Part shown: one piece after another, positions 13,626 through 32,000 of the stretch
Layout of the letters: the number at the start of each line of letters is the position of its first letter
Numbering within the stretch: the first letter of the stretch is position 1
Assembly (NCBI GenBank): GCA_021735045.1
Contig: JAIPHU010000011.1
Coordinates: forward strand, 1 to 32,000
Reading direction: 5' to 3'
DNA length: 32,000 bases
Source of the DNA: Candidatus Omnitrophota bacterium
Lineage (GTDB): Bacteria > Omnitrophota > Gorgyraeia > Duberdicusellales > 4484-171
Position numbers and translations under genes: made by a program
Notes under the pieces: model-generated
What the model was told of the DNA's origin: nothing
Seen by the model: only the letters and a program-made list of their open reading frames with translations
Databases searched by the model: none

Positions 13626-13626
13626 T

Positions 13627-13706: not shown

Positions 13707-13728
13707 TCGATAATCACGGATTAGGAAA

Positions 13729-14886: not shown

Positions 14887-14932
14887 ATCCACCAGATATT
14901 TTCAGCTGGTTAAACCTAGTCTAAATCAAAAA

Positions 14933-17308: not shown

Positions 17309-19289
17309 TAACCGAAGAAGGTATATAAGGCTTTCTACTGTTTTACCGGTAGAGTTTTTTATAGCCGATAAAAATGGGAAAAAGATTACGCCTTGGATTC
17401 AAGGGTTTACTCATGATATTGGTAGGGGTGGGATATGCCTTGTGGTTAATGATCTTTGGTGGGGGTTTTGGGATAAGTTTAACCGCACTCAGAACAAAAT
17501 ATTTCTCCGGATAAAACTTCCTTTTAAAAAAGAACCGTTATTTTTAGAGGCAGCTATTCGGTGGAAAGAATCAGAAGAATTGAAAAAGTTTAAACAGTAC
17601 AGAGTTGGTTTAGAATTTATAAGCTCTAAAAAGAAAAAAGCTGCTCCAATATTCAGGTTTGCCATATTTAAAAAAGTCGCGCCGGTGGTAGTGGTATCAA
17701 TTCTAACCGGTTTTATTTTATTTTCATCATTTTTGTTTTGGAAGACAAATCGCTTGGCTCAGGAAAATCGTCGTCTGGTAAGTGATCATATAGAGATATT
17801 GCAGAAGAACTCTTTTCTTGCCCAAAACTTAAAAGATAATAAACAAGCCCAAGAATTTCTTGCTAAAAGGAAGAACCAGCTAGGTGAAAAGATAACTAAT
17901 TTAGAAGAAACTATTTCAAATTTAAAAAAAGAATATAAAGAACTTAAAGATATCCAGAAAAAAAATCAACAACAATCCTTAGAGCTAATTGCCCTTGAGG
18001 AAAAATTAAATGAATATAATCAGCGGTTAGACTCTTTAAAAAGAGAAAATGAATTTTTAAAAAGTAAAATCAAAGAGAAAAAAAGATTAACTGCAGAAAT
18101 CCAAGAAGAAGCCCAGGAGCTTAAGGGAATAAAACACAGAGTTACAGAAAAAGTAATAGCTGGGATGCATGATTGGATTAGACACCGTCAAGATTTAGTA
18201 AAAGGGTTGATTTTAAGTTATGAAGGCGACAGTAGCCTAAGAGAAGTGTGTTTTACTTATGACCAGGCTTTAGCAGCTTTTGTTTTTCTAAACTATGGAG
18301 AAATAGATAGGGCTCAAAAGGTTTTGGATTTTTATCTTAATCAAATAAACCAGGGTAAAAAGATTTATAATGCTTATTTTACCGACGGTGGGGTTTTTGA
18401 ATATGTTCTCCACAGTGGGCCCCAGGCCTGGATTGGCCTTGCCGCTTTAAACTATAGAGAGAAAACAAAAAGTAAAAGGTATATTAAAGTTGCTAATGAA
18501 GTGGCGGATTTTCTTATTAGGATGCAAGATAAAGAAGGAGGTATTGTTGGAGGCCCAAAAGTGAGTTGGTACTCTACTGAACATAATTTAGATGCGTATG
18601 CTTTTTTTAGATTACTTTATAAACAAACCGGAAAGAGAGAGTATGAGAAGGTTGCTAACAAGGTCAAAAAGTGGATTTCTAAATATTCCTATACCCAATA
18701 TAAAATACCCATAAATAGAGGTAAAGGGGATTCTACTATAGCCACAGATACCTATACCTGGTCAATAACAGCATTAGGGCCGCAAACTTTATATTCAATG
18801 GGGATGGATCCAGAAGAGATTTTAAAGTTTGCAGAAAATAATTGTAAAGTTACTGTTAATTTTGAATATGATAATAGAAAGGTAAAAGTTGAAGGGTTTG
18901 ATTTTGCTAAGGCTAAACATGCAGCTCGCGGCGGAGTTATCTCTGGTGAATGGACTTCTCAGATGATTTTAGCTTATGAAGTGATGGCTGATTATTTTAA
19001 GCAGAAAGATACAAAGAAATATAAAGAGTATTTGGCTAAAGCTTATTTTTATTCTAATCAATTACAGAAGATGATAATAACTTCTCCTTCTCGGGCCGGA
19101 AGGATAGAACCCTGTCTTCCTTATGCATCTAGCCCTTATGTTAATACCGGTCATGGCTGGCGAACTCCACGGGGAAGCAGAACAGGTTCTTTAGCCTCAA
19201 CTGCTTATTTTTTGATAGCTTACAATGGATATAATCCTCTCAGAGGAGAATTTTTAGATGTATCGCTTAAAATCAAAGATGAAAAATAA
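17298..19289 (+). CDS. PilZ-domain protein with TM helix, long coiled coil and a C-terminal alpha/alpha-toroid-like domain
   Basis: PilZ motifs RRRYIRL (RxxxR) and DIGRGGICL. Hydrophobic segment VAPVVVVSILTGFILFSSFLFW. Heptad-rich, K/E-rich segment at about aa 160-280. The C-terminal fold assignment is tentative. Overlaps the preceding gene by 11 nt. Confidence 0.7.
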   Translation: MTDNNRRRYIRLSTVLPVEFFIADKNGKKITPWIQGFTHDIGRGGICLVVNDLWWGFWDKFNRTQNKIFLRIKLPFKKEPLFLEAAIRWKESEELKKFKQYRVGLEFISSKKKKAAPIFRFAIFKKVAPVVVVSILTGFILFSSFLFWKTNRLAQENRRLVSDHIEILQKNSFLAQNLKDNKQAQEFLAKRKNQLGEKITNLEETISNLKKEYKELKDIQKKNQQQSLELIALEEKLNEYNQRLDSLKRENEFLKSKIKEKKRLTAEIQEEAQELKGIKHRVTEKVIAGMHDWIRHRQDLVKGLILSYEGDSSLREVCFTYDQALAAFVFLNYGEIDRAQKVLDFYLNQINQGKKIYNAYFTDGGVFEYVLHSGPQAWIGLAALNYREKTKSKRYIKVANEVADFLIRMQDKEGGIVGGPKVSWYSTEHNLDAYAFFRLLYKQTGKREYEKVANKVKKWISKYSYTQYKIPINRGKGDSTIATDTYTWSITALGPQTLYSMGMDPEEILKFAENNCKVTVNFEYDNRKVKVEGFDFAKAKHAARGGVISGEWTSQMILAYEVMADYFKQKDTKKYKEYLAKAYFYSNQLQKMIITSPSRAGRIEPCLPYASSPYVNTGHGWRTPRGSRTGSLASTAYFLIAYNGYNPLRGEFLDVSLKIKDEK

Positions 19290-20221: not shown

Positions 20222-20255
20222 CCCGCAGACGTCCTACTTTCGCCAAATATAGGAC
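20222..20255 (+). repeat. Short version (34 nt) of the gcagacgtcct structured repeat, upstream of the nitroreductase gene
   Basis: cccgcagacgtcctactttcg (20222-20242) is identical to 20815-20835. The following ccaaatataggac matches 20860-20872 at 12 of 13 positions. gtccta pairs with taggac as a 6-bp stem, followed by atttgttttt. Confidence 0.85.
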
Positions 20256-20302
20256 ATTTGTTTTTGCTTATTTAGATACATCCTACAATGAGGAGGTTAG
20301 TA

Positions 20303-20803
20303 ATGGGAAAAACTGATATATTAAAATTAATGAAAAATAGGCGTTCTATTAGAAAATTTCAAGACAAAGAGATCTCTGTACAAGCTATAAAAGAATCATT
20401 AGAAGCAGCTCGTTGGGCGCCTTCAGGCCTCAACAATCAACCTTGGAAATTTATGATATTAGAGCAAGATAAAAAAGATTCCTTAGCTAAATATACAAAA
20501 TTTGGCCAAGTGATAAAACAAGCTAATAAATTAATCATAGTTTTCCTTAATAAAGAAAAACTATACAGTTATAAAAAAGACTTAATGGCGATTGGTGCTG
20601 CTATTCAAAATATTCTTATCTATCTTCAAAGCCAGAATGTAGGGAGTTGTTGGTTGGGTGAGATTATAAACCAAGCAGAGCAAGTTCAGAACAAGCTGCA
20701 GGTACCGCCAGAGTTAGAATTTGTGGCGGCTATTGCAGCGGGGGTACCTCAAGAAGAAGTAAAAATCACAGAACGTAGATCCCTGGAAGACCTAATCCTT
20801 TAA
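20303..20803 (+). CDS. Nitroreductase-family protein
   Basis: RRSIRKFQDKEIS and ARWAPSGLNNQPW motifs, size about 166 aa. SD aggagg at 20291-20296 favours ATG 20303 over the ORF-track start 20288. Confidence 0.85.
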   Translation: MGKTDILKLMKNRRSIRKFQDKEISVQAIKESLEAARWAPSGLNNQPWKFMILEQDKKDSLAKYTKFGQVIKQANKLIIVFLNKEKLYSYKKDLMAIGAAIQNILIYLQSQNVGSCWLGEIINQAEQVQNKLQVPPELEFVAAIAAGVPQEEVKITERRSLEDLIL

Positions 20804-20814
20804 AAAACCAAATT

Positions 20815-20878
20815 CCCGCAGACGTCCTACTTTCGGTAAAAGTAGACGTCCTATATTTGCCAGATATAGGACGTCTGC
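20815..20878 (+). repeat. Long version (64 nt) of the gcagacgtcct structured repeat with mutually exclusive hairpins, downstream of the nitroreductase gene
   Basis: agacgtcctatat (20844-20856) pairs with atataggacgtct (20864-20876) as a perfect 13-bp stem with a 7-nt loop. Alternatively, gcagacgtcct (20818-20828) pairs with aggacgtctgc (20868-20878). Confidence 0.9.
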
Positions 20879-20925: not shown

Positions 20926-20963
20926 TTGACGCAAAAAAGAAAACTAGTAAAATTTTACTAGTT
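20926..20963 (+). promoter_or_regulatory. Candidate promoter TTGACG-16 nt-TAAAAT overlapped by a perfect 22-bp palindrome (candidate operator) at the head of the PKS cluster
   Basis: ttgacg at 20926-20931 and taaaat at 20948-20953. aactagtaaaattttactagtt (20942-20963) is its own reverse complement. Confidence 0.5.
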
Positions 20964-20978
20964 AAAAAAAGTAAAAAT

Positions 20979-22496
20979 ATGCAAATAGCCAAATTATTAG
21001 CCCAAAAAAGCAAAAAATACCCTAAAAAAGCAGCTTTTATCTGTAAAGATCTGCCTGTATCATTTGCTCAGTTGAAAGATAAAAGTTTTAGTATTGCTAA
21101 CTATCTTTTAGAGTTGGGGCCAATAAAAAGTAAAAAAGTTGCAGTCTATCTGCCTAATTTGCCCGATACGGTTTTTAGTATCTTTGGAGTTTTGTCTGCG
21201 GGAGGGGTATTGGTTCCCCTTGACTATATGTTGACAGAAATTGAAATCATAAATTTCATCAATCATTCTCAAGCTCAGGTTTTGATTATTCAGCCTAAAA
21301 AAGAAGTTAGCCTAGATTGGGTTAAACAACAGTGCCCGGGTTTAAAAAAAATAGTTATTTCTGGGTCAGAGTCTAAAGAATTTACTTCTATTTCAGATAT
21401 CTTTACCAAGAGTTTTCTAGATTTTCCTCAAAGCTCAGTTAAAGACCAGGATGATGCTGCGATATTTTATACTTCAGGTTCAACCGGTCACCCCAAAGGA
21501 GTGGCCTTAACCTATCAACACCTGATAAACCCTATTGAGGTTATTGATAACTATTTAACTGTTAGTTGCAAAGATGTATTTTTGTGCGGGGGGATACCTT
21601 TTTCTCATATTGGCGGTTTAGACTTTATTCTATTTATGCTTTACTTTGGCTTTACCCTTATTTTGATGGAAAGATTCCAGCCGTTAGATTTCTTAAGAAA
21701 TATTCAAAAACATAAAGTAACTTTATTTTGCGTGGTGCCGGCTATGTTTATGGCTATACTTTTTCTAAAAGGGGCAAAAAAGTTCGACTTGTCTTTTCTG
21801 AAATATGCTGTGGTTTTTGGAGCGCCTTCTTCACCGGCGGTATTAAAGAGGTTTCATAAACTTTGCCCTAATGCTCAGTTACGCAATGGTTGGGGCATGA
21901 CCGAGACATCTGCACCTAACAGTTATTCGCCGGCAGATCAAAATAAACTTTCTAGCATCGGCCGTTTTGATTTTAATCTGGAAGCAAAAATTGTTGATAA
22001 CCAAGGTAGTCAGGTACCTCAAGGCAACAAAGGTGAGTTGTGGGTTAGAGGCAAAGGCGTTATGAAAGGTTACTATCGGGAACCAAAGTTAACCAAGCAG
22101 GTATTGACTGAAGACAGATGGCTAAAAACCGGAGATATAGCTAAAAAAGATAAAGAAGGTTTTTTTTATATAGTTGGGAGAAAAAAAGAGATGATTAAAG
22201 TAGCTGGAGAAATTGTATTTTCTCCGGAGGTAGAAAACGTTATTCAAAAATTTCCGGGGGTAGTTGAGGTAGCCGTTGTTGGCAAAAAGGATAAACTAAG
22301 AGGAGAGGTTCCCAAAGCCTTTTTAGTAGTGGATAAATCAGATCAGTTTGATAACCAGAAGTTTAGGGATTTTTTAAAACAGCACCTAGCTCACTTTAAG
22401 ATCCCTCAGAGTTTTGAATTTTGCGAAAAACTGCCTAAAAATAGAACTGGAAAGATAGATAAATTGAAGTTAACAAAAACTATAAAGATATCTTAA
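20979..22496 (+). CDS. AMP-dependent acyl-CoA/acyl-ACP ligase (ANL superfamily)
   Basis: A3 motif FYTSGSTGHPKGV, GWGMTET, YYREPKLT...GDIA and the C-terminal LPKNRTGKIDK. No SD is recognisable before ATG 20979. Confidence 0.9.
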   Translation: MQIAKLLAQKSKKYPKKAAFICKDLPVSFAQLKDKSFSIANYLLELGPIKSKKVAVYLPNLPDTVFSIFGVLSAGGVLVPLDYMLTEIEIINFINHSQAQVLIIQPKKEVSLDWVKQQCPGLKKIVISGSESKEFTSISDIFTKSFLDFPQSSVKDQDDAAIFYTSGSTGHPKGVALTYQHLINPIEVIDNYLTVSCKDVFLCGGIPFSHIGGLDFILFMLYFGFTLILMERFQPLDFLRNIQKHKVTLFCVVPAMFMAILFLKGAKKFDLSFLKYAVVFGAPSSPAVLKRFHKLCPNAQLRNGWGMTETSAPNSYSPADQNKLSSIGRFDFNLEAKIVDNQGSQVPQGNKGELWVRGKGVMKGYYREPKLTKQVLTEDRWLKTGDIAKKDKEGFFYIVGRKKEMIKVAGEIVFSPEVENVIQKFPGVVEVAVVGKKDKLRGEVPKAFLVVDKSDQFDNQKFRDFLKQHLAHFKIPQSFEFCEKLPKNRTGKIDKLKLTKTIKIS

Positions 22497-22517
22497 AGCG
22501 AGGAGGATAAATTAATT

Positions 22518-23252
22518 ATGATGCAACGTGATGTTCATATGAGCCCAGAGGATCTGCTAGATTCTCTCCAATTTAGAAAAGGAGATTTTGGTAAAATTGC
22601 TTTGGTCAGCGGACAAAAACAAAGAGCTCAGCTATGCTTAAAACATTTGGAAAATCCGGTTAAAAATTTTACTTTTTTAGGTTATACTTTTTGGACTGGA
22701 AATTATAAAAATAAAAAAGTTACAGTCGGTAACGGAGGGTTTTATGCTCCAGATTCTGCTTTTATTACAGAGTTGCTTGCTGTGGGTGGGGTTGATACCC
22801 TGATTCGATTAGGTTCTTGCGGAGCTTTAAGAGAAGATATCGGGGTAGGAGATTATATTTTGGTAGATCAAGCTATCCGGGGTGATGGTGCTACTAAATA
22901 TTACGTAGATGATGATTTTATCCCAAAAGCAGATAAAACTATTAGCTCAGCTATCAAAGAAATAGCCTCAGAAAGCTGTCCGGTTCATCAGGGTTCAGTT
23001 TGGACTACGGATGCCCTTTTTAAAGAAACAAAAGGCATCGTTAACTCTTATATAGAAAAAGGGGCTATCGGAGTCGATATGGTAACTTCTCCATTTTTGA
23101 CTTTAGCTAATCTTTATCAGAAAAAAACAGCAGCTATACTTTCAGTTTCTGATAATTTAATTACCGGAGAACTGGGGTTTAATAACTATAAATTTTTTGA
23201 AAGTCAGTTAAAGATGATAGAAGTAGCATTTAAAACAGTTGATAGTTTATAA
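22518..23252 (+). CDS. PNP/UDP-family nucleoside phosphorylase-like protein
   Basis: LIRLGSCGALRE resembles the DeoD/Udp RxGSCGA motif. Also GAIGVDMVTS. Size 244 aa. SD gaggagg at 22501-22507. Confidence 0.7.
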   Translation: MMQRDVHMSPEDLLDSLQFRKGDFGKIALVSGQKQRAQLCLKHLENPVKNFTFLGYTFWTGNYKNKKVTVGNGGFYAPDSAFITELLAVGGVDTLIRLGSCGALREDIGVGDYILVDQAIRGDGATKYYVDDDFIPKADKTISSAIKEIASESCPVHQGSVWTTDALFKETKGIVNSYIEKGAIGVDMVTSPFLTLANLYQKKTAAILSVSDNLITGELGFNNYKFFESQLKMIEVAFKTVDSL

Positions 23253-23261
23253 GGAGAGCAG

Positions 23262-23531
23262 ATGGAAATAAAATGGGATAGTTCAGCTAAGGAAAAGTTT
23301 GATAAAGTTATTCAATCTTTACCTCAGTTTCATAGGACAATTGCAGAAAAGTTGGTGCATCAAAAAGCAGAAGATTTAGCTAGTTGCCGTAAGTCACCGT
23401 TGGTAGAAGACCAAGATTTAATTCAGGCTTTCTTTCAGGAAGTTCCACCTGCTTTCTGTGAAATGATGAAAAGATTGTTTGATCATCTTAATATTGACTA
23501 TTCAAAATATATTGAGGAGCAGGATAAATAA
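23262..23531 (+). CDS. Small PCP_red-like (protochlorophyllide reductase C-terminal domain-like) protein
   Basis: The pattern W-(5)-A-(10)-LP-F-(18)-A is reminiscent of PF08369, but this is a weak call by eye. SD aaggag upstream. The stop overlaps the next start (TAATG). Confidence 0.35.
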   Translation: MEIKWDSSAKEKFDKVIQSLPQFHRTIAEKLVHQKAEDLASCRKSPLVEDQDLIQAFFQEVPPAFCEMMKRLFDHLNIDYSKYIEEQDK

Positions 23532-24538
23532 TGAAGATAGCAGTTTTAGGTTGTGGAGCAATCGGCGGGTTGTTTTTAGCTCATCTTTCTAAAGAGTCAA
23601 AAAATGTTTTTGGAGTAGTTAGAGACTATCAGCTGGATTCTTTAGAAAATGAAGGCCTGATAATTAAGCAAGAAAATAAGGAAGAAAACGTGAAAGTTAA
23701 AGTTTGTACTAGGTTAACAGAGCCCCTAGATTTAGCTATTTTCACCACCAAAACTAATAATTTGGAAGAAATAATACAAGAAAATATTGATTATCTAAAA
23801 GATGCGGTGGTGGTATCGGCTCAAAATGGATTGAGAGCAGATAATATTTTAGCTAAGTTTTTTCCAACTGAAAAAATTATAACTACTATTGTAATGTTTG
23901 GAGCAACTTTTTATCCGCCTAACAGAGTTGTTTCTAACTTCTCTGGGAATCTTATTATGGGAAATATTTTTGGGAAAAAAGTAGTTGACCAAGAAAAGAT
24001 AAGACAAATTTTAACTAAGTCATTTAATGTAGAAGTTTTAAACAATATAAAAGGAGCTAAATACCTTAAGCTGTTTATAAATCTTAATAACTGTATTCCG
24101 GCTATATTAGGAAAATCAATGCAGGAATCTTTTAGCAGCTTAGAAGTTGCTAAGTTAGCTATTAAGTTAAACCAAGAAGCTTACCGGCTTATCAGGCAAG
24201 TGGGTATCGATTTAGAAAGTTTACCTAATTACCCTAAGGAGAGAATTGAAAGTTTAACTTCAATGCCGCTTCAAGAAGCTGCTTCTCTTTTTTCAAAAAT
24301 AATGACCGGTTTAAGTAAAGAACCTTTATATGGCTCTATATTACAAAGTATAAAGAGAGATAAACTTTCTGAGATTGACTATATAAATGGTGAAATTGTT
24401 AAAGTAGCAGAAAATAATGGTCAACAGGTACCTTTAAATAAAAAGGTAGTTAGCTTAGTCCACCGTGTTGAGCGAGAAGGGTTTTTATCAGAAAATGAAC
24501 TCTTATCAGAAATTAAAGGAGTAGAAAATGAAAAATAA
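23531..24538 (+). CDS. 2-dehydropantoate 2-reductase (PanE/ApbA)-family oxidoreductase
   Basis: N-terminal Rossmann motif MKIAVLGCGAIGG. C-terminal SILQSIKRDKLSEIDYINGEIV matches the family motif S.LQD...G+.TEID.LNG. Confidence 0.8.
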   Translation: MKIAVLGCGAIGGLFLAHLSKESKNVFGVVRDYQLDSLENEGLIIKQENKEENVKVKVCTRLTEPLDLAIFTTKTNNLEEIIQENIDYLKDAVVVSAQNGLRADNILAKFFPTEKIITTIVMFGATFYPPNRVVSNFSGNLIMGNIFGKKVVDQEKIRQILTKSFNVEVLNNIKGAKYLKLFINLNNCIPAILGKSMQESFSSLEVAKLAIKLNQEAYRLIRQVGIDLESLPNYPKERIESLTSMPLQEAASLFSKIMTGLSKEPLYGSILQSIKRDKLSEIDYINGEIVKVAENNGQQVPLNKKVVSLVHRVEREGFLSENELLSEIKGVENEK

Positions 24539-25172
24539 AAATGAAGATTACTTATCAGCTAATTGTGCTGATATTAAAACTCCCTTTCCAAAACTAAAAG
24601 TAACTTGTACTGGGGTTTTTGGTGAGTGTTACCATGGTTATGAAGTGGGTGATGAACTAATTTTAGGAGATTTTACCCATCCTCCTAAGCATTTTTGCCT
24701 TGGGTTGGTTCATTCACTTTTTCCACCTGCCTACGCTTTAAGTTTTGGGGCTAGGTTTCCTTTTATGGAGAATCAAAAATCGTTAAAAGTTACTTGTCCT
24801 GATGGCGGAAAAGCTGAATTTTTGGTTGAGCTGTTAGATAAAAAAGATAAAGTTCAATTTATTCCCCAAGACCCTAACCATAAAGGGCCTAATCCGAAAA
24901 AAATGGAAGTAGAAGTAGTTAAGGCAAAAGGAAAATGTGCCTATAAATATAAAGTTGGTGACAAATGGGACATAGAAGGGCTTAAATGTATCCCCGGGTT
25001 TTGTGGAGCAGCTTGGCATACACTTTTTCCGGCGGTTTTTGCCTTAAACTTTGGAGCAAAATTTCATTTTATGCAAGACCCTAACTCTATAGATACAGTT
25101 ACTTGCCCTGATGGCGGCAACATTGTATTTAAGGTAAGAAGAAAAGAAAAAGACGCGAAAGAACGCGAATAA
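24528..25172 (+). CDS. Cys-rich protein with two tandem TIGR04076-like domains
   Basis: There is an internal duplication: GECYHGYEVGDE...FCLGLVHSLFPPAYALSFGARFPFMENQKSLKVTCPDGG versus GKCAYKYKVGDK...FCGAAWHTLFPAVFALNFGAKFHFMQDPNSIDTVTCPDGG. The family assignment is from memory of the TIGR04076 pattern. Confidence 0.45.
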   Translation: MKNKNEDYLSANCADIKTPFPKLKVTCTGVFGECYHGYEVGDELILGDFTHPPKHFCLGLVHSLFPPAYALSFGARFPFMENQKSLKVTCPDGGKAEFLVELLDKKDKVQFIPQDPNHKGPNPKKMEVEVVKAKGKCAYKYKVGDKWDIEGLKCIPGFCGAAWHTLFPAVFALNFGAKFHFMQDPNSIDTVTCPDGGNIVFKVRRKEKDAKERE

Positions 25173-25238
25173 AAAAGATGCGAAAGAGCGCGAATACAAT
25201 TAGTGTTTATTAGTTAAAAATTAGCGTTTATTCGCGTT
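25150..25238 (+). repeat. Intercistronic palindromic element, gacgcgaa family copy 1 (TIGR04076-like gene to KSalpha)
   Basis: Left-arm words: aagacgcgaaa gaacgcgaata ... gatgcgaaa gagcgcgaata. Right-arm words: attagtgttt attagttaaaa attagcgttt attcgcgtt. aacgcgaat (25162-25170) pairs with attcgcgtt (25230-25238) as a perfect 9-bp stem. Confidence 0.9.
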
Positions 25239-25254
25239 ATAAAGGAAGGTAGAA

Positions 25255-26502
25255 ATGAAAAGAGTAGTTATAACAGGTGTTGGTGTAATATCAGCTGCAG
25301 GCGAAGAAAAGAATGAATTTTATAATAATCTAATTGAAGGTAAGCCGTGCATAGAAAAGGTAGAAAATTTTGACGTCAGTTTATTTAATTCAAAAGTCGC
25401 TTCTCAAGATCTAGATTTTGATCCTAAAAACTTTGGCATAGAAGATGCTTATCGTATGGATCGTTATGTTCAGTTTGGCCTTGCTTCTGCAAAACAGGCG
25501 GTCAAAGATGCAAAACTAGATTTCTCAGATCTAGATTTAAGAAAATCAGGAGTTATCTTGGCAAACGCTATTTGTGGAACCCGGTTTATGGAAGAAGAGT
25601 TTCTTCTGGTAACCGATTGGGGCAAAAATCCAATTGATCCCAGAAAGGGAAGGCCTTATCTTTATGATGCTGCGATGTTTAATACGCCAAGTGCTGAAAT
25701 TTCTGCTTTTTTTGGCACCCAGGGGATAAATACAACAATTTCTACTGGTTGTACCGCCGGTACTGATTCTTTAGGCTTTGCTTATGAATTAATTAAAGAT
25801 GGCAGGCAGGATTTAGTTATATCCGGAGCCAGTGAGGCCCCGATTACTCCGGTTACCTTCGGTGCCTTTGATGTAGTTAATGTTTTAGCTAAAGAGAATG
25901 ATCAGCCTCATAGATCAAGCCGTCCCTTTGACAATAAACGTAATGGTTTTGTTATTTCTGAAGGAGCCGGAATCTTAATCATGGAAGAACTCGAGCATGC
26001 TAAAAAAAGAGGAGCTCATATCTACGCAGAAGTTAAAGGTTTTGGTACTACTTGTAATGCTTATCATATGACTGATCTACCCCCAGATGGGCGCCCGATG
26101 GCACTTTCTATGGAACAGGCTTTGTCTGAGGCAGGTATTGATAAAAAAGAAGTAGGTTATATTAATGCCCATGGGTCTTCGACTCGCCAAAATGACATTT
26201 TTGAAACTGATGCTTACAAAAAAGTTTTTGATAAACTTGCTTATGATATTCCGATCAGCTCAATTAAATCTATGGTTGGCCATCCTTTGGCAGCTGCAAA
26301 TGCGGTTGAAAGTGTTTTGTGCTGTATGGTTTTTGAAAAAGGTTACCTTCCTCCTACAATTAATCAAGAAGAAAAAGACCCAAAGTGTGATCTAAACTAT
26401 ATTCCTAATAAAAAAATGAAACTAATGCCAGAATACATATTAAAGACAAGTAGTGGATTCTCAGGTATTCATTCAGCTATTGTGTTTAAAAAATGGAAAT
26501 AG
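25255..26502 (+). CDS. Type II PKS ketosynthase alpha (KSalpha)
   Basis: Active-site ISTGCTAGTDSLGFA (the TGCT.G.D pattern typical of KSalpha rather than FabF), catalytic His in AYHMTD and INAHGSSTRQND, and the GFSGIHSAIVF C-terminus. SD aaggaagg upstream. Confidence 0.9.
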   Translation: MKRVVITGVGVISAAGEEKNEFYNNLIEGKPCIEKVENFDVSLFNSKVASQDLDFDPKNFGIEDAYRMDRYVQFGLASAKQAVKDAKLDFSDLDLRKSGVILANAICGTRFMEEEFLLVTDWGKNPIDPRKGRPYLYDAAMFNTPSAEISAFFGTQGINTTISTGCTAGTDSLGFAYELIKDGRQDLVISGASEAPITPVTFGAFDVVNVLAKENDQPHRSSRPFDNKRNGFVISEGAGILIMEELEHAKKRGAHIYAEVKGFGTTCNAYHMTDLPPDGRPMALSMEQALSEAGIDKKEVGYINAHGSSTRQNDIFETDAYKKVFDKLAYDIPISSIKSMVGHPLAAANAVESVLCCMVFEKGYLPPTINQEEKDPKCDLNYIPNKKMKLMPEYILKTSSGFSGIHSAIVFKKWK

Positions 26503-26506
26503 ATAA

Positions 26507-26591
26507 AAGACGCGAAAGAACGCGAATATGATACAAATGAACGCGAACATAATTAGTGTTTTTTCGTTAAAAATTAGCGTTTATTCGCGTT
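26507..26591 (+). repeat. Intercistronic palindromic element, gacgcgaa family copy 2 (KSalpha to CLF)
   Basis: aagacgcgaaagaacgcgaat (26507-26527) is identical to 25150-25170. gttaaaaattagcgtttattcgcgttataaa (26566-26596) is identical to 25213-25243. Confidence 0.9.
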
Positions 26592-26611
26592 ATAAATAAG
26601 GAGTTTTATAA

Positions 26612-27850
26612 ATGAAAGAGAAAGTTGCCATAACAGGTTTAGGGGTTGTTTCTCCTTGTGGCCTAAAGAAAGAAACTTTTTGGGCTAATTTAAAAAAAGA
26701 AGAATCATTTATAGAAGAAATCAAAAGGTTTGATTCAAAAAATTATCCTTCACATATTGCTGGTCAGGTGAGTCAACTTGATTATTATACCCATCTTTCT
26801 AAAAGGTTAACAAAAAAAATTGATATTTTTTCCCATATGGCACTTGTCTCTTCAGAAGAGGCGATAGTAGATTCAAAAATGAACCTAGATGATATCGACA
26901 AAGAAAGAGTTGGAGTATTTATGGGCAATGCCTTAGGCGGATGGTTGTTTGCTGAAACTGAATTAAGGGATATGTATATTGAAGGCAGAGACGGTATCTC
27001 TCCTTATATGGCATCAGCTTGGTTTCCGGCTGCACCTCAAGGCCAGATTACAATTTACTATGGATTTAAAGGATATAGTAAAACCACAGTTTCTGATAAG
27101 GCATCATCTGCTTTGGCTTTATGGTATGGGGCAAAAACAATTAAAGAAAAAAAGAATGACTATGTATTAGCCGGAGGAATGGAGGCACCGATTACCCCCT
27201 ATGCCTTGTTATCTGCTAATTGCCGGGGTGATTTGTCAAAAAATAATAGCCGTCCCCAAGAAGCTTATAAGCCTTATGATTTGTATCGAGACGGGCTGGT
27301 ATTAGCAGAAGGTTCGGGTACAGTTGTCTTAGAAAGTCAAAATCAAGCAAGAAAAAGAAAAGCTCCGATTTATGGTTATATAGAAGGTATCGGTTTTTCT
27401 TCGGATGGGTATCATTATGCAAGGTACCGGCCTACCCCAGAAAATCTAGAGTATGCTATAAAAGAATGCTTAAAAGATGCTGGTTGGCAAAAAGAGGATG
27501 TTGATTATATCTGCTTAGATGCAGAGTCTACTGAAATGGGAGATTACCTTGAAACCCAAGCTTTAAAGAATGTATTTGGAGAAAAAATTAAAAACATAGC
27601 TTTAAGTGCGCCTAAAAGCATGTATGGAAATCTATTGGGAGCTCAAACCGCATTAGACTTAATTACTACTTTATTTTCGATGCAAAACTGTATTGTGCTT
27701 CCTACTATAAACTATTCGATGCAAGACCCATACTGTGACCTAGACTATACACCTAATAAGTCAGTGGAAAAAGAGATAGATAAGGCACTGATTATTTCCA
27801 GAGGCAGGGGAGGAATAAATATAGTATTAGCAATAGAAAAAGCGGAGTGA
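26612..27850 (+). CDS. Ketosynthase beta / chain-length factor (CLF), lacking the catalytic Cys
   Basis: This is a full-length KS paralogue. KSalpha TTISTGCTAGTDS aligns with TTVSDKASSALAL (no Cys, no Gln), and INAHGSST aligns with ICLDAEST (His lost). It lies directly downstream of KSalpha. Confidence 0.85.
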   Translation: MKEKVAITGLGVVSPCGLKKETFWANLKKEESFIEEIKRFDSKNYPSHIAGQVSQLDYYTHLSKRLTKKIDIFSHMALVSSEEAIVDSKMNLDDIDKERVGVFMGNALGGWLFAETELRDMYIEGRDGISPYMASAWFPAAPQGQITIYYGFKGYSKTTVSDKASSALALWYGAKTIKEKKNDYVLAGGMEAPITPYALLSANCRGDLSKNNSRPQEAYKPYDLYRDGLVLAEGSGTVVLESQNQARKRKAPIYGYIEGIGFSSDGYHYARYRPTPENLEYAIKECLKDAGWQKEDVDYICLDAESTEMGDYLETQALKNVFGEKIKNIALSAPKSMYGNLLGAQTALDLITTLFSMQNCIVLPTINYSMQDPYCDLDYTPNKSVEKEIDKALIISRGRGGINIVLAIEKAE

Positions 27851-27943
27851 GCAAAGCGAACGGAGTTCTGAGCGATCAAGCGGTGAGCGCAGTCCTGAGC
27901 TTGTCGAAGGACGAAGTCGAACCACGCAGGGAGTCGAAGGAGA
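27851..27943 (+). other. GC-rich, purine-rich direct-word tract between CLF and ACP
   Basis: Hand count over 27851-27940: 53 of 90 nt are G/C and 58 of 90 are purines. tgagc starts at 27848, 27869, 27884 and 27896. gtcgaa starts at 27903, 27916 and 27933. No complementary arm was found. Confidence 0.8.
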
Positions 27944-27969
27944 TAAAAAATAAATTATAAGGAGGCAAA

Positions 27970-28209
27970 ATGGATTTAAAAGAAGAAGTAATAAAAGTAA
28001 TTGCAGAAACCCTAGAAGTAGGCAAAGAAGAAGTTGTTGATGGAAAGAATTTATATGAATCAATTGGTGTTGATTCAACAGAAATGGTAGAAGTTTGTGT
28101 GGCTTTAGGAAAACATTTCGACACAAAAATCCAAGCCAGTGAAGTTAACAAAGATTCAACTCCCGAGGATATAGTAAGAATAGTTAAACAAAAAAAAGAA
28201 AATAATTGA
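27970..28209 (+). CDS. Acyl carrier protein
   Basis: 79 aa and acidic, with the phosphopantetheine attachment motif IGVDSTEMVEV. SD aaggagg at 27959-27965. Confidence 0.85.
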   Translation: MDLKEEVIKVIAETLEVGKEEVVDGKNLYESIGVDSTEMVEVCVALGKHFDTKIQASEVNKDSTPEDIVRIVKQKKENN

Positions 28210-29021
28210 TAACTATGAATTTAATAGATTTAAGTTTACCAATCGACGATCAAGCCTTCGAGGTTCATCCTTTAAGGATAGAACGCACTTCACATAAAGA
28301 AGGTATAGCAAAGATAAATAAGGTAATAATGTCTCGAACTCCTGAAGGCAAAAAAAATTATCAAGCTGGTGAAAGGATAATAAAAAAAGAACAATTGCCA
28401 GGAGGAGAATTTTTGTCACTGGAGATGGTTTATTCGTCAGTCCATAGCGGAACTCATATGGATTATTCTTTTCATTATGGCAGCAGCTCCGAAGGCAGGC
28501 CTTCTAAAACTGCTGATGAAATTCCTTTAGAGTTATGTTACAAAGACGGGGTAAAATTAGACTTAACTCATAAGAAAAAAGAAGAAGTAATTAGCGCCGA
28601 GGATATAAAGAAAGGTTTAGAAAAAATAAATTACACTTTAAAGCCCTTAGACATAGTTTTGCTTTATACCGGATCTGACAAACTATTTGGCAAACCGGAA
28701 TATTTTTCTGATTATCCAGGCCTGGATATATCAGCAATAGATTATCTACTTGATTGCGGTATAAAAGTATTTGGAGTTGATACTATGGGAATTGATAGGC
28801 CCTATAAATTTATGATCAAAGATTTTTTAGAAAAAGGGGATCCTAAATTTTTGTGGCCGGCTCATTTTCATGGAAGAACCAGAGAATTTATTCATATTGA
28901 AAGGCTTGCTAATTTAGAAAATTTACCTGATTATGGATTTAAACTTATTTGTTTTCCAGTTAGAATCAGAAAAACTGGTGCTGCTTGGTCAAGGGCCGTT
29001 GGAGTAATTGGTGACAAGTAA
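28206..29021 (+). CDS. Putative cyclase (PF04199 / kynurenine formamidase-like fold)
   Basis: VHSGTHMDYSFHY matches the family motif HxGTHxDxPxH. The start is either TTG 28206 (overlapping the ACP stop) or ATG 28215. Confidence 0.85.
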   Translation: MITMNLIDLSLPIDDQAFEVHPLRIERTSHKEGIAKINKVIMSRTPEGKKNYQAGERIIKKEQLPGGEFLSLEMVYSSVHSGTHMDYSFHYGSSSEGRPSKTADEIPLELCYKDGVKLDLTHKKKEEVISAEDIKKGLEKINYTLKPLDIVLLYTGSDKLFGKPEYFSDYPGLDISAIDYLLDCGIKVFGVDTMGIDRPYKFMIKDFLEKGDPKFLWPAHFHGRTREFIHIERLANLENLPDYGFKLICFPVRIRKTGAAWSRAVGVIGDK

Positions 29022-29047
29022 TTAATTAAACAAAAAGGAGGTTTACT

Positions 29048-29479
29048 ATGGCACATACTGTAAATTCAATTGTAATTGATGCACCTTACGATAAGGTTTT
29101 TGAAATCAGTAATGATATTTCTCGTTGGAAGGATTTGTTTGACGAATATACCGAATCTGAAGTTTTAGAAAAAGAAGCAAATAAGATTATTTTTCAGCTT
29201 ACTCATCAAAATGGCAATAGTTGGAAGTCATACCGGCTTTTGTTTAAAGAAAATAAATTTGCTTATGCAGAAAAGCTAGATCCAAAGTTTCCTTTTGAAT
29301 ATATGAAGATAATCTGGCTTTACCGCCAACTTCCAAACGGGGTTGAGATGACATGGATTCAAGATTTTACTATGGATAAAAATGCTAAGTTTGATGATCC
29401 AAAAGCTGAAGAGATTATAAATCAACACTCGCAGAAGAACTTAAAGAATTTTAAACAACAAATAGAAAATGAAAAATAA
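29048..29479 (+). CDS. SRPBCC-superfamily polyketide aromatase/cyclase-like protein
   Basis: 143 aa, with an N-terminus I.A....VF....D...W..LF typical of Polyketide_cyc2/TcmN-like monodomain ARO/CYC. PKS context. SD aaggagg upstream. Confidence 0.65.
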   Translation: MAHTVNSIVIDAPYDKVFEISNDISRWKDLFDEYTESEVLEKEANKIIFQLTHQNGNSWKSYRLLFKENKFAYAEKLDPKFPFEYMKIIWLYRQLPNGVEMTWIQDFTMDKNAKFDDPKAEEIINQHSQKNLKNFKQQIENEK

Positions 29480-29482
29480 AAA

Positions 29483-30634
29483 ATGTTAAAAACACACAGA
29501 CGCACTTTTTTCTTTTTAGCTAGCTTGGCTTTTATCCTTTCTTTTAGTGTACAAGCTACAGCAGCGCTTCTGCCTACTTTAGCAGAATATTTCAATCAAA
29601 GTCCGGTTGCAACAGGTAAGTTAATTTGGATTTATATGCTTCCCTACGGACTATGTGCTTTAATTTGGAGTCCGTTAAGCAGGCAGTTTTCGAATAAAAG
29701 GATTCTGCTTTCTTGTCTGGCGCTTTTTTCTCTGTCTGCTTTGGCAGTGACTTTTTCTTTTAATCTATTAGCTGCTTTTTTAGGCCGGTTGGGTATGGGT
29801 ATATTTGGCTCGGCACTGGTACCTTTAAGTTTAATTACGATTGGTAAAGAGTGTAATAGTAAAGAGCGTCCTAAACATGTTGGTTTATTTTTTTCAGTTG
29901 GTTTTAGTTCAGGGCTCATAGGAGTTTTTTTAAGTGGGATTTTACCTTGGAGGTTTATCTACGGAATTCCTGCCTGTCTAGGGATAGTAGCTTTATTTTT
30001 TGGCATAAGGTATCTAGATAGCTATGATTATCGGGGTAAGTTTAAAATTAGCTACCTGGCTACGTTTAAAGACAAAAGTGCCTTAAAACTATTTTCTTTT
30101 ATCTTTGTTTTAAGTTTTTTCTACCATAGTATTCATCAATGGTTAGGGGTCTACTTAGCTCAAGAATATTCTTTTAGTCAATTTTTAGTAAGTTTAACTT
30201 TAACTATTTCAGCAATAGCTGCAATTTTTTCTGAAAGTATTGGCGGTTTTTTATCAGCTCGGTTTGGTTCCTCTAATATTGCTTCATTAGGGCTTTTGAG
30301 TATGGTTTTATTTTTATTTTTTACTTTAATTGTCGGATTGCCTCAGGCAATATTTTTTCTTATTATTTTTTGGGGTATGGGTTGGGCTTTTAACCATGTC
30401 GGTTTATCGTCATATTTAACTGGGCTTCCCGATAAATATTTGCGTGATGCATCCAGTCTAAATAGCTCTTTAAGGTTTATCTCTGGAGGCTTAGGGACTT
30501 ATTTTGGCGGAAAGATTATCTCTAAGATAGGGTTTTCGATCCATTTTATAACTGTAGGAGTTTTACTTTTGGTAGTAGCAGTTTTAATTAAAAAAACTTT
30601 AATAGTTAATAACGCGAATGAACGCGAATTATAG
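29483..30634 (+). CDS. MFS transporter
   Basis: About 12 hydrophobic helices over 383 aa, with the typical MFS loop motif SPLSRQFSNKRILL between TM2 and TM3. Confidence 0.8.
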   Translation: MLKTHRRTFFFLASLAFILSFSVQATAALLPTLAEYFNQSPVATGKLIWIYMLPYGLCALIWSPLSRQFSNKRILLSCLALFSLSALAVTFSFNLLAAFLGRLGMGIFGSALVPLSLITIGKECNSKERPKHVGLFFSVGFSSGLIGVFLSGILPWRFIYGIPACLGIVALFFGIRYLDSYDYRGKFKISYLATFKDKSALKLFSFIFVLSFFYHSIHQWLGVYLAQEYSFSQFLVSLTLTISAIAAIFSESIGGFLSARFGSSNIASLGLLSMVLFLFFTLIVGLPQAIFFLIIFWGMGWAFNHVGLSSYLTGLPDKYLRDASSLNSSLRFISGGLGTYFGGKIISKIGFSIHFITVGVLLLVVAVLIKKTLIVNNANEREL

Positions 30635-30696
30635 ACGCGAATGAACGCTAATATTATTAGCGTTTATTTGTTATAAATTAGTGTTTTTTCGCGTTT
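30611..30696 (+). repeat. Intercistronic palindromic element, gacgcgaa family copy 3 (MFS to SDR)
   Basis: Left arm: aacgcgaatgaacgcgaattatagacgcgaatgaacgctaat. Right arm: attagcgtttatttgttataaattagtgttttttcgcgttt. The MFS stop TAG (30632-30634) lies inside the left arm. Confidence 0.85.
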
Positions 30697-30712
30697 AAAA
30701 GAGGAGGTTAAG

Positions 30713-31495
30713 ATGGGTAATTTAGAAGATAAAGTTGCAATTGTAACTGGTGCTACAGGAGGTATTGGTAAAGATATAGTTAAAGGACTAGTTGATAAAA
30801 AAATAAAACTTATATTGGCTGGGCGCAATCAAGAAAAATTAAAATCCTTAGAAGAAGAATTTTCGAAAATTTCTGAAATTATTACAGTTAGCTGTGATGT
30901 TACCAAAAGAAAGGATTTAGAAAATTTAATTAATAAAGCCAAAGAAAAATTTGGCAAGATTGATTTTTTAATTAATGGGGCTGGAGTATCAAGCCAGCAT
31001 CCTTTTTGGAATCAGCCTATAGAAGATATAGAAAAAATTATCTGGACCAACTATTATAGTTATGTAATGTTATCAAGAATGGTTGTGCCAATTATGAAAG
31101 AAAATAATTTTGGCCATATTGTAAATATTACATCTGGATCTGTGATGGTAGATCCGCCGCCAAGAAATTTTATTGTTTACACTTCTTTAAAGGTGGCATT
31201 ACGCAGCTTTGCTAAGGGTCTTTTTTGGGAGATGCGTGATTTTGGGATAAAGGTTACATCCATTTTTCCTGGGGTAACCCGGACTCCTTTAACCGGTAAG
31301 TTAAAGAATATAGCTGAAAATAGGCTTATAGAACCAAAAGCAGTAGCTGATACAGTAGTGTTTGCCTTGGCTCAGCCATTAAATGTTTGCCCCATTGAAC
31401 TTGCTGTAATAAATCAACAAACACCTTGGACAAAACCGGTTATTCCGTTTAAACAAGATCACCCGAAAGACGCGAAAGAACGCGAATGTAATTAG
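30713..31495 (+). CDS. Short-chain dehydrogenase/reductase (candidate PKS ketoreductase)
   Basis: VTGATGGIGK cofactor motif, NGAG, and the catalytic Ser ...YTSLK (YxxxK). SD gaggagg upstream. Confidence 0.9.
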   Translation: MGNLEDKVAIVTGATGGIGKDIVKGLVDKKIKLILAGRNQEKLKSLEEEFSKISEIITVSCDVTKRKDLENLINKAKEKFGKIDFLINGAGVSSQHPFWNQPIEDIEKIIWTNYYSYVMLSRMVVPIMKENNFGHIVNITSGSVMVDPPPRNFIVYTSLKVALRSFAKGLFWEMRDFGIKVTSIFPGVTRTPLTGKLKNIAENRLIEPKAVADTVVFALAQPLNVCPIELAVINQQTPWTKPVIPFKQDHPKDAKERECN

Positions 31496-31552
31496 TGTTT
31501 TTTCGTTAAAAATTAGCGTTTATTTGTTATAAATTAGCGTTTATTCGCGTTT
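31467..31552 (+). repeat. Intercistronic palindromic element, gacgcgaa family copy 4 (SDR to radical SAM)
   Basis: aagacgcgaaagaacgcgaat (31467-31487) is identical to copies 1 and 2. The extended right arm is attagtgttttttcgttaaaaattagcgtttatttgttataaattagcgtttattcgcgttt. The SDR stop lies inside the element. Confidence 0.9.
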
Positions 31553-31570
31553 AAACAAAGGAGGTAGAAA

Positions 31571-32000
31571 ATGAAAGTATTATTTGTAACCCCTAAAACT
31601 GGAGCTTGGGCAACTCATGGAAAGCATCTAGGCCCTAACCAACTTTATGCCCAGTGGGCAGCATTTATCAGAGAGAAAGGCTTTAAAGATTTAGAAGTAC
31701 TTGATTGCCGGGCCCACCAGATAGAGATGGATGAGATGCTTGAGGTGATAAAAGAAAAAAATCCAGAAGTAGTAGTAATTGGGGATATGCTTCATTCCTA
31801 TGGAGGATTTGGAATTATTCACTATTTTTTAAAAACAGCCGAAGGGATAAAAAAGATTTTACCTAATACTAAAATAATCTTTGGAGGGCTTTGGTTTTCA
31901 TCGATGCCTAAATATTCTTTGGAAAAATATCCTTTTATTGACTATGTAGTTATGGCTGAAGAAGAAGCGTTTTTTGATTTGCTATCTTCTCTAGAAAAAA
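31571..32000 (+). CDS. B12-binding-domain radical SAM protein, N-terminal fragment (CDS continues beyond the window)
   Basis: Not in the ORF track because no stop is reached. My translation: MKVLFVTPKTGAWATHGKHLGPNQLYAQWAAFIREKGFKDLEVLDCRAHQ...NPEVVVIGDM...TKIIFGGLWFSSMPKYSLEKYPFIDYVVMAEEEAFFDLL. This matches the layout of the class B radical SAM cobalamin-binding domain. SD aaaggagg at 31557-31564. The CxxxCxxC motif would lie outside the window. Confidence 0.55.
   Translation, partial: MKVLFVTPKTGAWATHGKHLGPNQLYAQWAAFIREKGFKDLEVLDCRAHQIEMDEMLEVIKEKNPEVVVIGDMLHSYGGFGIIHYFLKTAEGIKKILPNTKIIFGGLWFSSMPKYSLEKYPFIDYVVMAEEEAFFDLLSSLEK

Follow-up and report, generated by a model that had tools for sequence, protein, structure and literature searches.

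A conserved operon of Omnitrophota that probably encodes an early-branching, clostrubin-like type II polyketide synthase

The stretch of DNA analysed here, called the window below, covers positions 1-32000 of contig JAIPHE010000009.1 (39,086 bp), which belongs to the metagenome-assembled genome (MAG) GCA_021735365.1 of Candidatus Omnitrophota. An operon of 18 genes and about 16.4 kb occupies contig positions 20979-37363, with its first 13 genes inside the window. Comparison of its genes with known systems indicates that it probably encodes an early-branching type II polyketide synthase (PKS) of the clostrubin kind, accompanied by tailoring enzymes that would work without oxygen. An earlier note on this DNA had proposed a type II PKS in an AT-rich organism other than an actinomycete, and the origin of the contig bears this out. 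The 13 genes it had listed on the + strand were all confirmed as open reading frames (ORFs) at their positions between 20979 and 32000, separated by short gaps or overlaps, and every motif it quoted is present in the proteins. Pfam and NCBIfam back its domain calls with the exception of a small protein of 89 aa described as 'PCP_red-like', for which the match is faint (E 0.03; 14.9 bits, with the cutoff at 32.5). The cluster extends past position 32000: five more genes of the operon lie beyond it on the contig.

The pair of ketosynthase (KS) genes carries much of the argument. The Cys166-His271-His306 triad of KSalpha is invariant in 57/57 orthologues. In its partner KSbeta the Cys position is taken by Ala164 (55 of 56 orthologues) and that of the second His by Asp303 (all 56); because of these two replacements KSbeta cannot condense and is predicted to be catalytically dead. 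The best matches of KSalpha in the PDB are AntD, from the Photorhabdus anthraquinone PKS (366 bits), and the actinorhodin (Act) KSalpha (345 bits), with FabF proteins reaching at most 323 bits. An insertion of five residues is common to KSalpha, AntD and the Act KSalpha and is missing from FabF and from KSbeta. The KS pair is not nested inside FabF or FabB clades: in a small neighbour-joining tree (411 columns, 100 bootstraps) of limited taxon sampling, built without actinomycete chain-length factor (CLF) or AntE sequences, KSalpha forms a clade with the KSalphas of variant operons, that of Clostridium beijerinckii, AntD and the Act KSalpha (bootstrap 90), to which L129, a FabF-like metagenome sequence, attaches at bootstrap 81 (L numbers designate the loci that we retrieved). 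In the same tree KSbeta and its C. beijerinckii counterpart share one clade (bootstrap 100), and KSalpha and KSbeta together are split from most FabFs (bootstrap 93). Judged from these sequences, the locus is a real type II PKS and not a FabF locus.

The partner had previously been called a CLF. It is indeed a KS paralogue devoid of the active-site Cys, but the canonical Gln is replaced by Ala, and the protein resembles FabF more closely than actinomycete CLFs do. The same Ala occurs in the KSbeta of C. beijerinckii and C. puniceum (ADRASGM) and in other near relatives; it is characteristic of the early-branching clade and sets it apart from actinomycete CLFs.

The remaining core proteins also keep their functional positions. 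The Asp-Ser of the acyl carrier protein (ACP) is invariant in 107/107 sequences, and the His and Asp residues of the motif in the PF04199 cyclase, a family that we infer to correspond to the 'OxyN-type' enzymes, are invariant in 86/86. The SRPBCC protein, which had been assigned as an aromatase/cyclase, proved to be of the TcmN/WhiE type: it matches TcmN (PDB 2rez/2rer) with E 2e-25 and about 93 bits and WhiE (3tvr) with E 1e-22 and about 84 bits. Its alignment with TcmN keeps W28, F32, Y35, W65, S67, R69, M91, W95, W108, Q110 and N136 (TcmN numbering), which we take, from structure work on TcmN, to be functional pocket residues; nine of these 11 aligned positions are invariant in 77/77 aromatase orthologues and the other two are kept in 76/77. 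TcmN and WhiE themselves are actinomycete enzymes that stand alongside canonical Gln-CLFs, and TcmN, unlike the mono-domain protein of the operon, is fused to a methyltransferase.

Comparison of KSbeta with a library clustered at 50% identity revealed a steep drop among its relatives, from a single representative at 55% (Deltaproteobacteria MAGs) to full-length matches at 42-44%, and then to about 39% and lower. The representative at 42% comes from C. beijerinckii and C. puniceum, the nearest named cultured organisms, so that the earlier lead towards clostrubin was right. These two species are the clostrubin producers (PMC7693217, which names ClrB and ClrB-Cp; PMC5321127), and their PKS locus is presumably clr, as the organisms and the architecture suggest. 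Proteins of the C. beijerinckii cluster are identical to those of the window at 45% (KSalpha), 41% (KSbeta), 44% (cyclase), 43% (aromatase) and 29% (Amidohydro_2). The clostridial locus (L140) encodes KSalpha, KSbeta, a TIGR04076-ACP fusion of 175 aa, a PF04199 cyclase, a mono-domain aromatase, two phosphopantetheinyl transferases, CMD, DUF362, DUF169 and TIGR04076 proteins, Amidohydro_2, an ACP, two alpha/beta hydrolases, ketosynthase III (KSIII) and an ABC transporter. It thus shares with the operon KSalpha, KSbeta, the cyclase and the mono-domain TcmN-type aromatase in the same order, as well as the KSbeta Ala, Amidohydro_2, TIGR04076 and an anaerobic host. The fusion, the phosphopantetheinyl transferases, KSIII, the CMD, DUF362 and DUF169 proteins, the hydrolases and the ABC transporter are, however, features of the clostridial cluster only, which in turn lacks the operon's PanE-like reductase, short-chain dehydrogenase/reductase (SDR), B12-binding radical S-adenosylmethionine (SAM) enzyme, AMP-ligase and genes for a nucleoside phosphorylase (PNP), an MtnA-like isomerase, an aldolase and an aldehyde dehydrogenase (ALDH). 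It is also limited to a few species, whereas the operon is spread over a phylum.

ClrB has been placed in an ancestral clade (PMC7693217), and the Hillenmeyer scheme, cited in the same source, gives the ancestral architecture as KS-CLF-ACP-TcmN-OxyN. This core is found in the operon, with a mono-domain TcmN, an OxyN-type cyclase and a KSbeta related to ClrB-type CLFs. Another non-actinobacterial system is the Photorhabdus ant cluster (AQ-256), from which the best solved-structure match to KSalpha comes and which also encodes a CoA ligase and a ketoreductase besides an aromatase and a cyclase. It lacks the radical SAM, TIGR04076 and nucleoside-salvage genes of the operon, and its partner KS, AntE, is not among the best 60 PDB matches to KSbeta. 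Whereas the aromatase of the operon is mono-domain, those of the ant, den and pcy clusters carry a duplication (TcmN-TcmN; PMC7693217). No gene-for-gene match was seen in any characterized cluster.

Two interpretations of the locus as lipid machinery have to be weighed against a polyketide pathway. The two KS proteins could be the FabF and FabB of the organism, surrounded by ordinary lipid enzymes in a housekeeping fatty acid synthase (FAS) locus. KSalpha passes the cutoff of the NCBIfam 'KAS II' subfamily PRK07314 (418 bits against 387), for which reason automated annotation labels it FabF-like, and KSbeta, whose best PDB matches are FabFs, scores 279 bits to FabF against 184 to the Act CLF. 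On the fabF model TIGR03150, however, both KSalpha (438 bits) and KSbeta (366 bits) remain under the equivalog cutoff of 493.75. Moreover, Cys and one His are lost from KSbeta in 55-56 of 56 orthologues, KSalpha groups with AntD and with the Act and clostridial KSalphas, and the TcmN-type aromatase and the polyketide cyclase have no role in FAS. Neither FabD, FabH, FabG, FabZ nor FabI is encoded in the operon or within 10 kb of it in 57 loci. The KS scores, the KSbeta residues, the tree, the conserved aromatase and cyclase and the missing fab neighbours lead us to reject a FAS locus, which is extremely improbable. One candidate for a separate FabF, a 35% match in L058, turned out to come from a second contig bearing the same operon, and the Omnitrophota proteins that are 43-47% identical to the clostridial KSbeta are nearly all further KSbeta types devoid of Cys, not FabF.

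An origin of the product in unusual lipid metabolism, with a KS/CLF-like FabF heterodimer and the B12 radical SAM enzyme building a modified, ladderane-like fatty acid in the way put forward for anammox bacteria, is also very unlikely. Anammox bacteria do possess FabF homologues that form a KS/CLF-like heterodimer of an active and a mutated KS (PDB 9s5h) beside radical SAM genes (bioRxiv 10.64898/2026.05.19.726425), B12 radical SAM enzymes are part of the operon, and a Cariaco Basin study reported expression of biosynthetic gene clusters (BGCs) in Omnitrophota and antiSMASH 'ladderane' BGCs in their MAGs (PMC9902471). Yet KSalpha matches the two 9s5h chains with only 269 and 210 bits but AntD with 366, and the anammox pair is more distant from it than FabF or AntD; the ladderane-type model TIGR04072 requires 360 bits, of which the radical SAM enzyme reaches 75. 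The anammox system makes a lipid and has neither aromatase nor cyclase, whereas the conserved aromatase/cyclase and cyclase of the operon point to aromatization of rings, and neither a dehydratase nor an enoyl reductase is found in the operon. On scores and gene content the ladderane-type reading was rejected.

The type II PKS operon is widespread in Omnitrophota. More than 120 database clusters (at 90% identity) contain KSbeta proteins 69-100% identical to that of the window, and every named one is assigned to Omnitrophota or Omnitrophica. When one genome per species was scanned, 57 genome loci were obtained, three MAG chromosomes of 1.28, 1.52 and 1.82 Mb among them, and the operon is syntenic in at least 55 species-level genomes of Omnitrophota; since the loci were gathered by similarity to the operon, these counts do not represent prevalence in the phylum. 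The order is near-universal: ligase, PNP, 89-aa protein, PanE-like reductase, TIGR04076 tandem, KSalpha, KSbeta, ACP, cyclase, aromatase, major facilitator superfamily (MFS) transporter, SDR, radical SAM enzyme, Amidohydro_2, IF-2B (MtnA-like) isomerase, aldolase and ALDH. Presence was counted in the 25 loci with full 10-kb flanks, ALDH often lying past the fetched flank. The five PKS core genes occur in 25/25, the TIGR04076 tandem in 24/25, the ligase, PNP, the 89-aa protein, MFS, SDR, radical SAM enzyme and Amidohydro_2 in 23/25 each, IF-2B in 21/25 and the aldolase in 18/25.

The level of sequence conservation is high (last column of the table), and KSalpha is more conserved than the adjacent essential GTPase Era in all 15 loci that carry both genes. 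The G+C content of the window is 0.31-0.37 throughout without a step at the cluster, and Era or a nitroreductase gene is a shared neighbour in 15-17 loci; a recent horizontal transfer was therefore rejected. From the sequences compared, the operon is under strong purifying selection and is kept in synteny across Omnitrophota. The shared neighbours, the even base composition and the degree of constraint argue for long vertical inheritance under strong selection, which is unusual for a type II PKS.

An operon of the Omnitrophota type, with KSbeta identities of 73-88%, is also carried by several public records under the name 'uncultured Planctomycetia' and by a single one under 'Methanosarcinales archaeon' (L005, L011, L021, L022, L025, L026, L033 and others); taxonomic mislabelling or bin contamination of public MAGs is the probable cause. 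In one MAG (QZM4_1.bins.127) two contigs, L049 and L058, each carry the 5' part of the operon with slightly different identities, which reflects either a duplication or two strains merged in the bin.

Beyond this syntenic group the same gene set is found in other orders. Metagenome loci retrieved with the 55% KSbeta relative have a G+C content of 0.38-0.62, and a variant order reads PNP, IF-2B, aldolase, ALDH, radical SAM enzyme, 89-aa protein, PanE, TIGR04076 tandem, KSalpha, KSbeta, ACP, cyclase, aromatase, MFS, SDR, Amidohydro_2 and a second radical SAM enzyme. Rearranged loci of this kind come from other Omnitrophota and from Deltaproteobacteria MAGs; the whole gene set is retained in them, with PNP, IF-2B, aldolase and ALDH, and one is from 'Candidatus Omnitrophica bacterium CG1_02_44_16'. 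The operon family thus spans divergent Omnitrophota and a deltaproteobacterial lineage. Some variants contain additional genes. In the deltaproteobacterial L065, two tungsten-type aldehyde:ferredoxin oxidoreductases (AORs) and an FAD amine-oxidase/desaturase-like gene are located inside the cluster (5007-7007, 13161-15146 and 16089-17342). L068 carries between its cyclase and radical SAM genes (L068:12647-16173) a TIR-domain protein and a 707-aa protein with eight DUF4379 zinc-finger repeats, which look like defence-type genes that landed in the operon. In L089 (1792-2247), and also in L087, L068 and L065, a separate ORF of about 150-160 aa with a partial IF-2B domain follows the MtnA-like gene, and in L089 a HypF-C/Kae1-like carbamoyltransferase gene follows the second radical SAM gene.

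The conservation of the TIGR04076 tandem protein is on a par with that of the KS genes, and the three Cys of each repeat are invariant in 81/81 sequences. The AlphaFold2 model is confident (mean predicted local distance difference test score, pLDDT, 82), and Foldseek found no solved analogue of the fold in the PDB (E>0.09). We propose that it is a putative metalloprotein associated with the ACP or the PKS. Its fusion to the ACP in the clostridial cluster suggests that it acts at the carrier protein, and the presence there of the fusion and of a stand-alone copy makes TIGR04076 look like a recurrent, unrecognized part of early-branching type II PKSs. In C. beijerinckii the fusion is encoded by the ORF that follows the CLF (L140:11260-11787), and a second, stand-alone TIGR04076 gene lies at L140:15656-15946. 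In the literature searched, no paper ties TIGR04076 to PKSs.

The SDR is present as the earlier note had stated, but it is generic, and its identity as a polyketide C9 ketoreductase is not supported, as no specific match occurs among the best 60 PDB matches. The PanE-like reductase, a candidate polyketide ketoreductase, belongs to the minimal conserved core of locus L002. The B12 radical SAM enzyme is BchE/HpnJ-like; with 206 bits on the NCBIfam BchE model (cutoff 481) it stays below all equivalog cutoffs. Amidohydro_2 is closest to the LigW and ACMSD decarboxylases, a relationship that fits the removal of a chain-terminal carboxyl group. The 89-aa protein scores 26.8 bits on DUF2621, just under the cutoff, and in variant operons its gene directly follows that of the B12 radical SAM enzyme. 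The MFS protein is presumed to be an exporter. The best NCBIfam match of the AMP-ligase is PRK06187 (408 bits, under the cutoff of 476).

The genes for PNP, the MtnA-like isomerase, the aldolase and ALDH form a nucleoside block that stays with the PKS through at least five arrangements, which argues that the link between the two is functional and not accidental. The best PDB matches of PNP are DeoD-type PNP and the Sulfolobus 5'-methylthioadenosine (MTA) phosphorylase 1jds. The IF-2B protein passes the MtnA-family model TIGR00524 (191 bits against 185.85) without reaching equivalog cutoffs, and the aldolase has a Pfam Aldolase_II domain and likewise reaches no equivalog cutoff. A known counterpart is the dihydroxyacetone phosphate (DHAP) shunt (MtnP or MtnN/MtnK, MtnA, Ald2), which converts 5'-deoxyadenosine or MTA to DHAP and an aldehyde (PMC10986504, PMC12632272). 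By its domains the block likewise comprises a phosphorylase, an MtnA-family isomerase and a class II aldolase, and in variant operons these are contiguous. Unlike the shunt, however, the set of the operon is embedded among PKS genes, is followed by ALDH or AOR and is tied to an AMP-ligase.

Two roles can be considered for this block. It could be a local DHAP shunt that clears the 5'-deoxyadenosine released by the radical SAM enzyme and has no carbon link to the polyketide. This is a serious possibility, if one at somewhat less than even chances: the gene set matches that of the shunt, one or two B12 radical SAM genes are always alongside, and 5'-deoxyadenosine inhibits radical SAM enzymes (PMC8102628). 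Such a purely scavenging function does not sit easily with the AMP-ligase gene, which adjoins that of PNP in two different arrangements (that of the window and that of L068), or with the aldehyde-oxidizing enzyme that always follows (ALDH, or the tungsten-type AOR in L065) and suggests that the carbon of the aldehyde is conserved in the form of an acid instead of being lost. The alternative, that the block makes the starter unit, is a more doubtful proposition. Here a 5'-deoxynucleoside would yield an aldehyde (from MTA, for instance, 2-(methylthio)acetaldehyde) and then an acid, which the ligase would adenylate and load as primer; or else an adenosylated intermediate would be trimmed in the manner of MqnE/MqnB or HpnH/HpnG. 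Pairs of a radical SAM enzyme and a PNP_UDP_1-family protein are known in the futalosine and hopanoid side-chain pathways. Against this reading, the radical SAM enzyme of the operon is of the B12 class, not MqnE- or HpnH-like. In favour of the starter-acid reading, KSbeta lacks the Gln for decarboxylative priming, ligase, PNP, isomerase, aldolase and ALDH are all contiguous in this order in L068, and the association of block and PKS persists through the rearrangements. The reading is thus attractive, on account of the missing Gln and of the ligase beside PNP in two arrangements, but it is weakened by the fact that most variants have no ligase.

Taken as a clostrubin-like type II PKS, the operon suggests the following pathway. 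KSalpha and KSbeta would build up a poly-beta-keto chain, bound to the ACP, out of malonyl units. As it has neither Cys nor Gln, KSbeta is unlikely to prime the chain by decarboxylation, and a separate primer would consequently be needed, with the AMP-ligase as a candidate primer loader. The TcmN-type enzyme would fold the unreduced chain and aromatize the first ring (of the C9-C14 type, by analogy with TcmN and WhiE), and the PF04199 cyclase would close further rings. Carbonyls may be reduced by the PanE-like and SDR reductases and a terminal carboxyl taken off by the LigW/ACMSD-like Amidohydro_2, while the BchE-like B12 radical SAM enzyme may methylate the scaffold (C-methylation) or modify it oxidatively without oxygen. 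The TIGR04076 tandem would serve as an ACP-proximal, Cys-ligated metal protein and the MFS protein would export the product. PNP, the isomerase, the class II aldolase and ALDH would convert a 5'-deoxynucleoside to DHAP and an aldehyde, and the aldehyde to an acid; either 5'-deoxyadenosine or MTA, which both arise as by-products of SAM chemistry, would serve as substrate, and the block would either clear an inhibitory radical SAM by-product or feed the ligase with a starter acid.

Several points weigh against this interpretation. Apart from the FabF-like scores of both KS proteins and the Ala that KSbeta has in place of the canonical CLF glutamine, the KS tree is thinly sampled and the loci were collected by their similarity to the operon. 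The operon contains no gene for a malonyl transferase, a phosphopantetheinyl transferase, a dehydratase or an oxygenase. The AMP-ligase is present in only 2/9 rearranged variants and missing from the minimal locus L002, from which it follows that it is not universally required. The SDR and PanE proteins are only putative polyketide reductases, and the aldolase could be an MtnB-like dehydratase.

The operon is predicted to be driven by a single promoter. The earlier note had pointed out a promoter-like site at 20926-20953. The bare consensus performs no better than in shuffled sequence (33 sites found against 36.5 expected), but conservation establishes the element as real: upstream of the operon, on the + strand of 45 related loci, TTGA(C/T)N is followed after exactly 16 nt by TAAAATTT. 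It also precedes the first gene of rearranged operons, whichever this is (the radical SAM enzyme in L076, the 89-aa protein in L118, PNP in L044 and L053). In the window a perfect palindrome of 22 bp (11+11), AACTAGTAAAA/TTTTACTAGTT, occupies 20942-20963; across the loci the -10 sits at the centre of the palindrome AATAGTAAAA/TTTTACTATT, and a third half-site usually lies 14 bp after it. A conserved sigma-70 -10 located inside a palindromic operator points to control by a repressor, and the palindrome is a putative repressor-type operator; no regulator gene is evident in the operon. A FapR-type operator was considered. The half-sites TAGTA/TACTA resemble those of fapO, which in B. subtilis is TTAGTACCTAGTCTTAA (PMC12281612), but the palindrome is of 18 bp with one extra central base; no search for a FapR gene was made, and the resemblance may serve as a lead only.

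Features of the operon and its surroundings. Positions are those of the contig, which coincide with those of the window up to 32000; identities are medians.
Feature	Position	Strand	Details	Identity to window protein
Nitroreductase-family protein	20288-20803	+	PF00881; directly upstream of operon	
Sigma-70-type promoter	20926-20963	+	TTGACG, 16 nt, TAAAAT; -10 inside palindrome	
AMP-dependent acyl ligase	20979-22496	+	505 aa; FadD/MenE-like; PF00501, PF13193	
Nucleoside phosphorylase (PNP)	22518-23252	+	hexameric PNP/MTAP type; PF01048 (PNP_UDP_1)	
89-aa conserved protein	23262-23531	+	faint DUF2621 and PCP_red resemblance	
PanE/ApbA-family NAD(P)H reductase	23531-24538	+	PF02558, PF08546; TIGR00745, 158 bits against cutoff 141	
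Tandem double TIGR04076 protein	24528-25172	+	99 bits against cutoff 33	69%
KSalpha	25255-26502	+	active ketosynthase	77%
KSbeta	26612-27850	+	chain-length-factor-like partner	75%
ACP	27970-28209	+	PF00550; DS phosphopantetheine site	
PF04199 cyclase ('OxyN-type')	28206-29021	+	metal-dependent; HSGTHMDYSFH; gene caller start 28215	72%
TcmN/WhiE-type aromatase/cyclase	29048-29479	+	mono-domain SRPBCC, 143 aa	69%
MFS transporter	29483-30634	+	PF07690; efflux-type NCBIfam matches	
SDR oxidoreductase	30713-31495	+	classical; PF00106; presumed tailoring reductase	70%
B12-binding radical SAM enzyme	31571-33031	+	486 aa; window holds N-terminus only (31571-32000)	75%
Amidohydro_2	33028-33912		beyond window	
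IF-2B/MtnA-like isomerase	33909-34853		beyond window	
Class II aldolase	34855-35883		Pfam Aldolase_II; beyond window	
ALDH	35870-37363		last operon gene	
RlmN	from 37418		gene after operon	
Era			adjacent essential GTPase	58%

Upstream of the cluster lie ordinary housekeeping genes, those for DnaG, RpoD, GatCAB, a tail-specific protease, TsaD and then Era. The nitroreductase gene is set apart from the operon by the promoter region and is present in 10/25 of the full-flank loci; it is a frequent neighbour that probably does not belong to the operon. Copies of CCCGCAGACGTCCTACTTTCG flank it at window positions 20222-20243 and 20815-20878. Their core, AGACGTCCTA, is present in four copies (20226, 20819, 20843 and, inverted, 20867) where 0.19 are expected, and it forms a 16-bp hairpin at 20844-20876. 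The CCCGCAGACGTCCTACTTTCG/AGACGTCCTA motif was not found in the 140 other fetched loci, closest relatives included, so the repeat is private to this genome. Just upstream of Era, window positions 14933-19289 encode a TPR/DUF3857/transglutaminase protein of 791 aa and a protein of 663 aa with only an N-terminal PilZ domain; the PilZ protein recurs beside the operon in six loci. No structured RNA was found in the window at Rfam gathering scores.

In a catalogue of 2023, Candidatus Omnitrophica figures among the phyla for which KS-CLF hits are recorded (PMC10132072). Beyond this listing, the literature searched contains no description of an Omnitrophota type II PKS; neither a phylum-wide Omnitrophota analysis of 2023 nor a complete-genome preprint of 2026 mentions a PKS. 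Type II PKSs are generally treated as sporadic, mostly actinomycete machines of secondary metabolism. The operon described here is not sporadic but lineage-wide and syntenic, and it has become fixed in many species of a candidate phylum whose members are ultra-small bacteria.

One may speculate, with considerable reserve since we think it more likely to be wrong than right, that the operon makes a lineage-defining aromatic polyketide which these streamlined, largely anaerobic nanobacteria need, and not an optional antibiotic. Such a compound might act as a quinone-like, redox-active carrier or shuttle, protect against oxygen as a pigment, a role that has been proposed for clostrubin, or mediate an interaction with a host or prey. 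Its assembly would draw on two elements that have so far gone unrecognized: the TIGR04076 Cys-metal protein at the ACP of such early-branching PKSs, and a route by which ribose carbons of SAM-derived 5'-deoxynucleosides enter the polyketide after the action of phosphorylase, isomerase and aldolase, oxidation of the aldehyde and adenylation.

The operon extends the 'ancestral' clade of anaerobes, that of the clostrubin type, and suggests TIGR04076 and the Amidohydro_2 decarboxylase as additional ancestral parts. It would also link polyketide assembly with the metabolism of SAM by-products, and its sharply defined promoter and operator can be used for finding the regulator. In chromosomes of 1.3-1.8 Mb, a 16-kb operon represents about 1% of the genome. 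Since it is kept gene for gene and is more conserved than Era, its product is probably important to the way of life of these very small bacteria, and the pattern of conservation suggests a physiological role. The operon thereby offers a handle on the biology of Omnitrophota, which is otherwise inferred from genomes alone.

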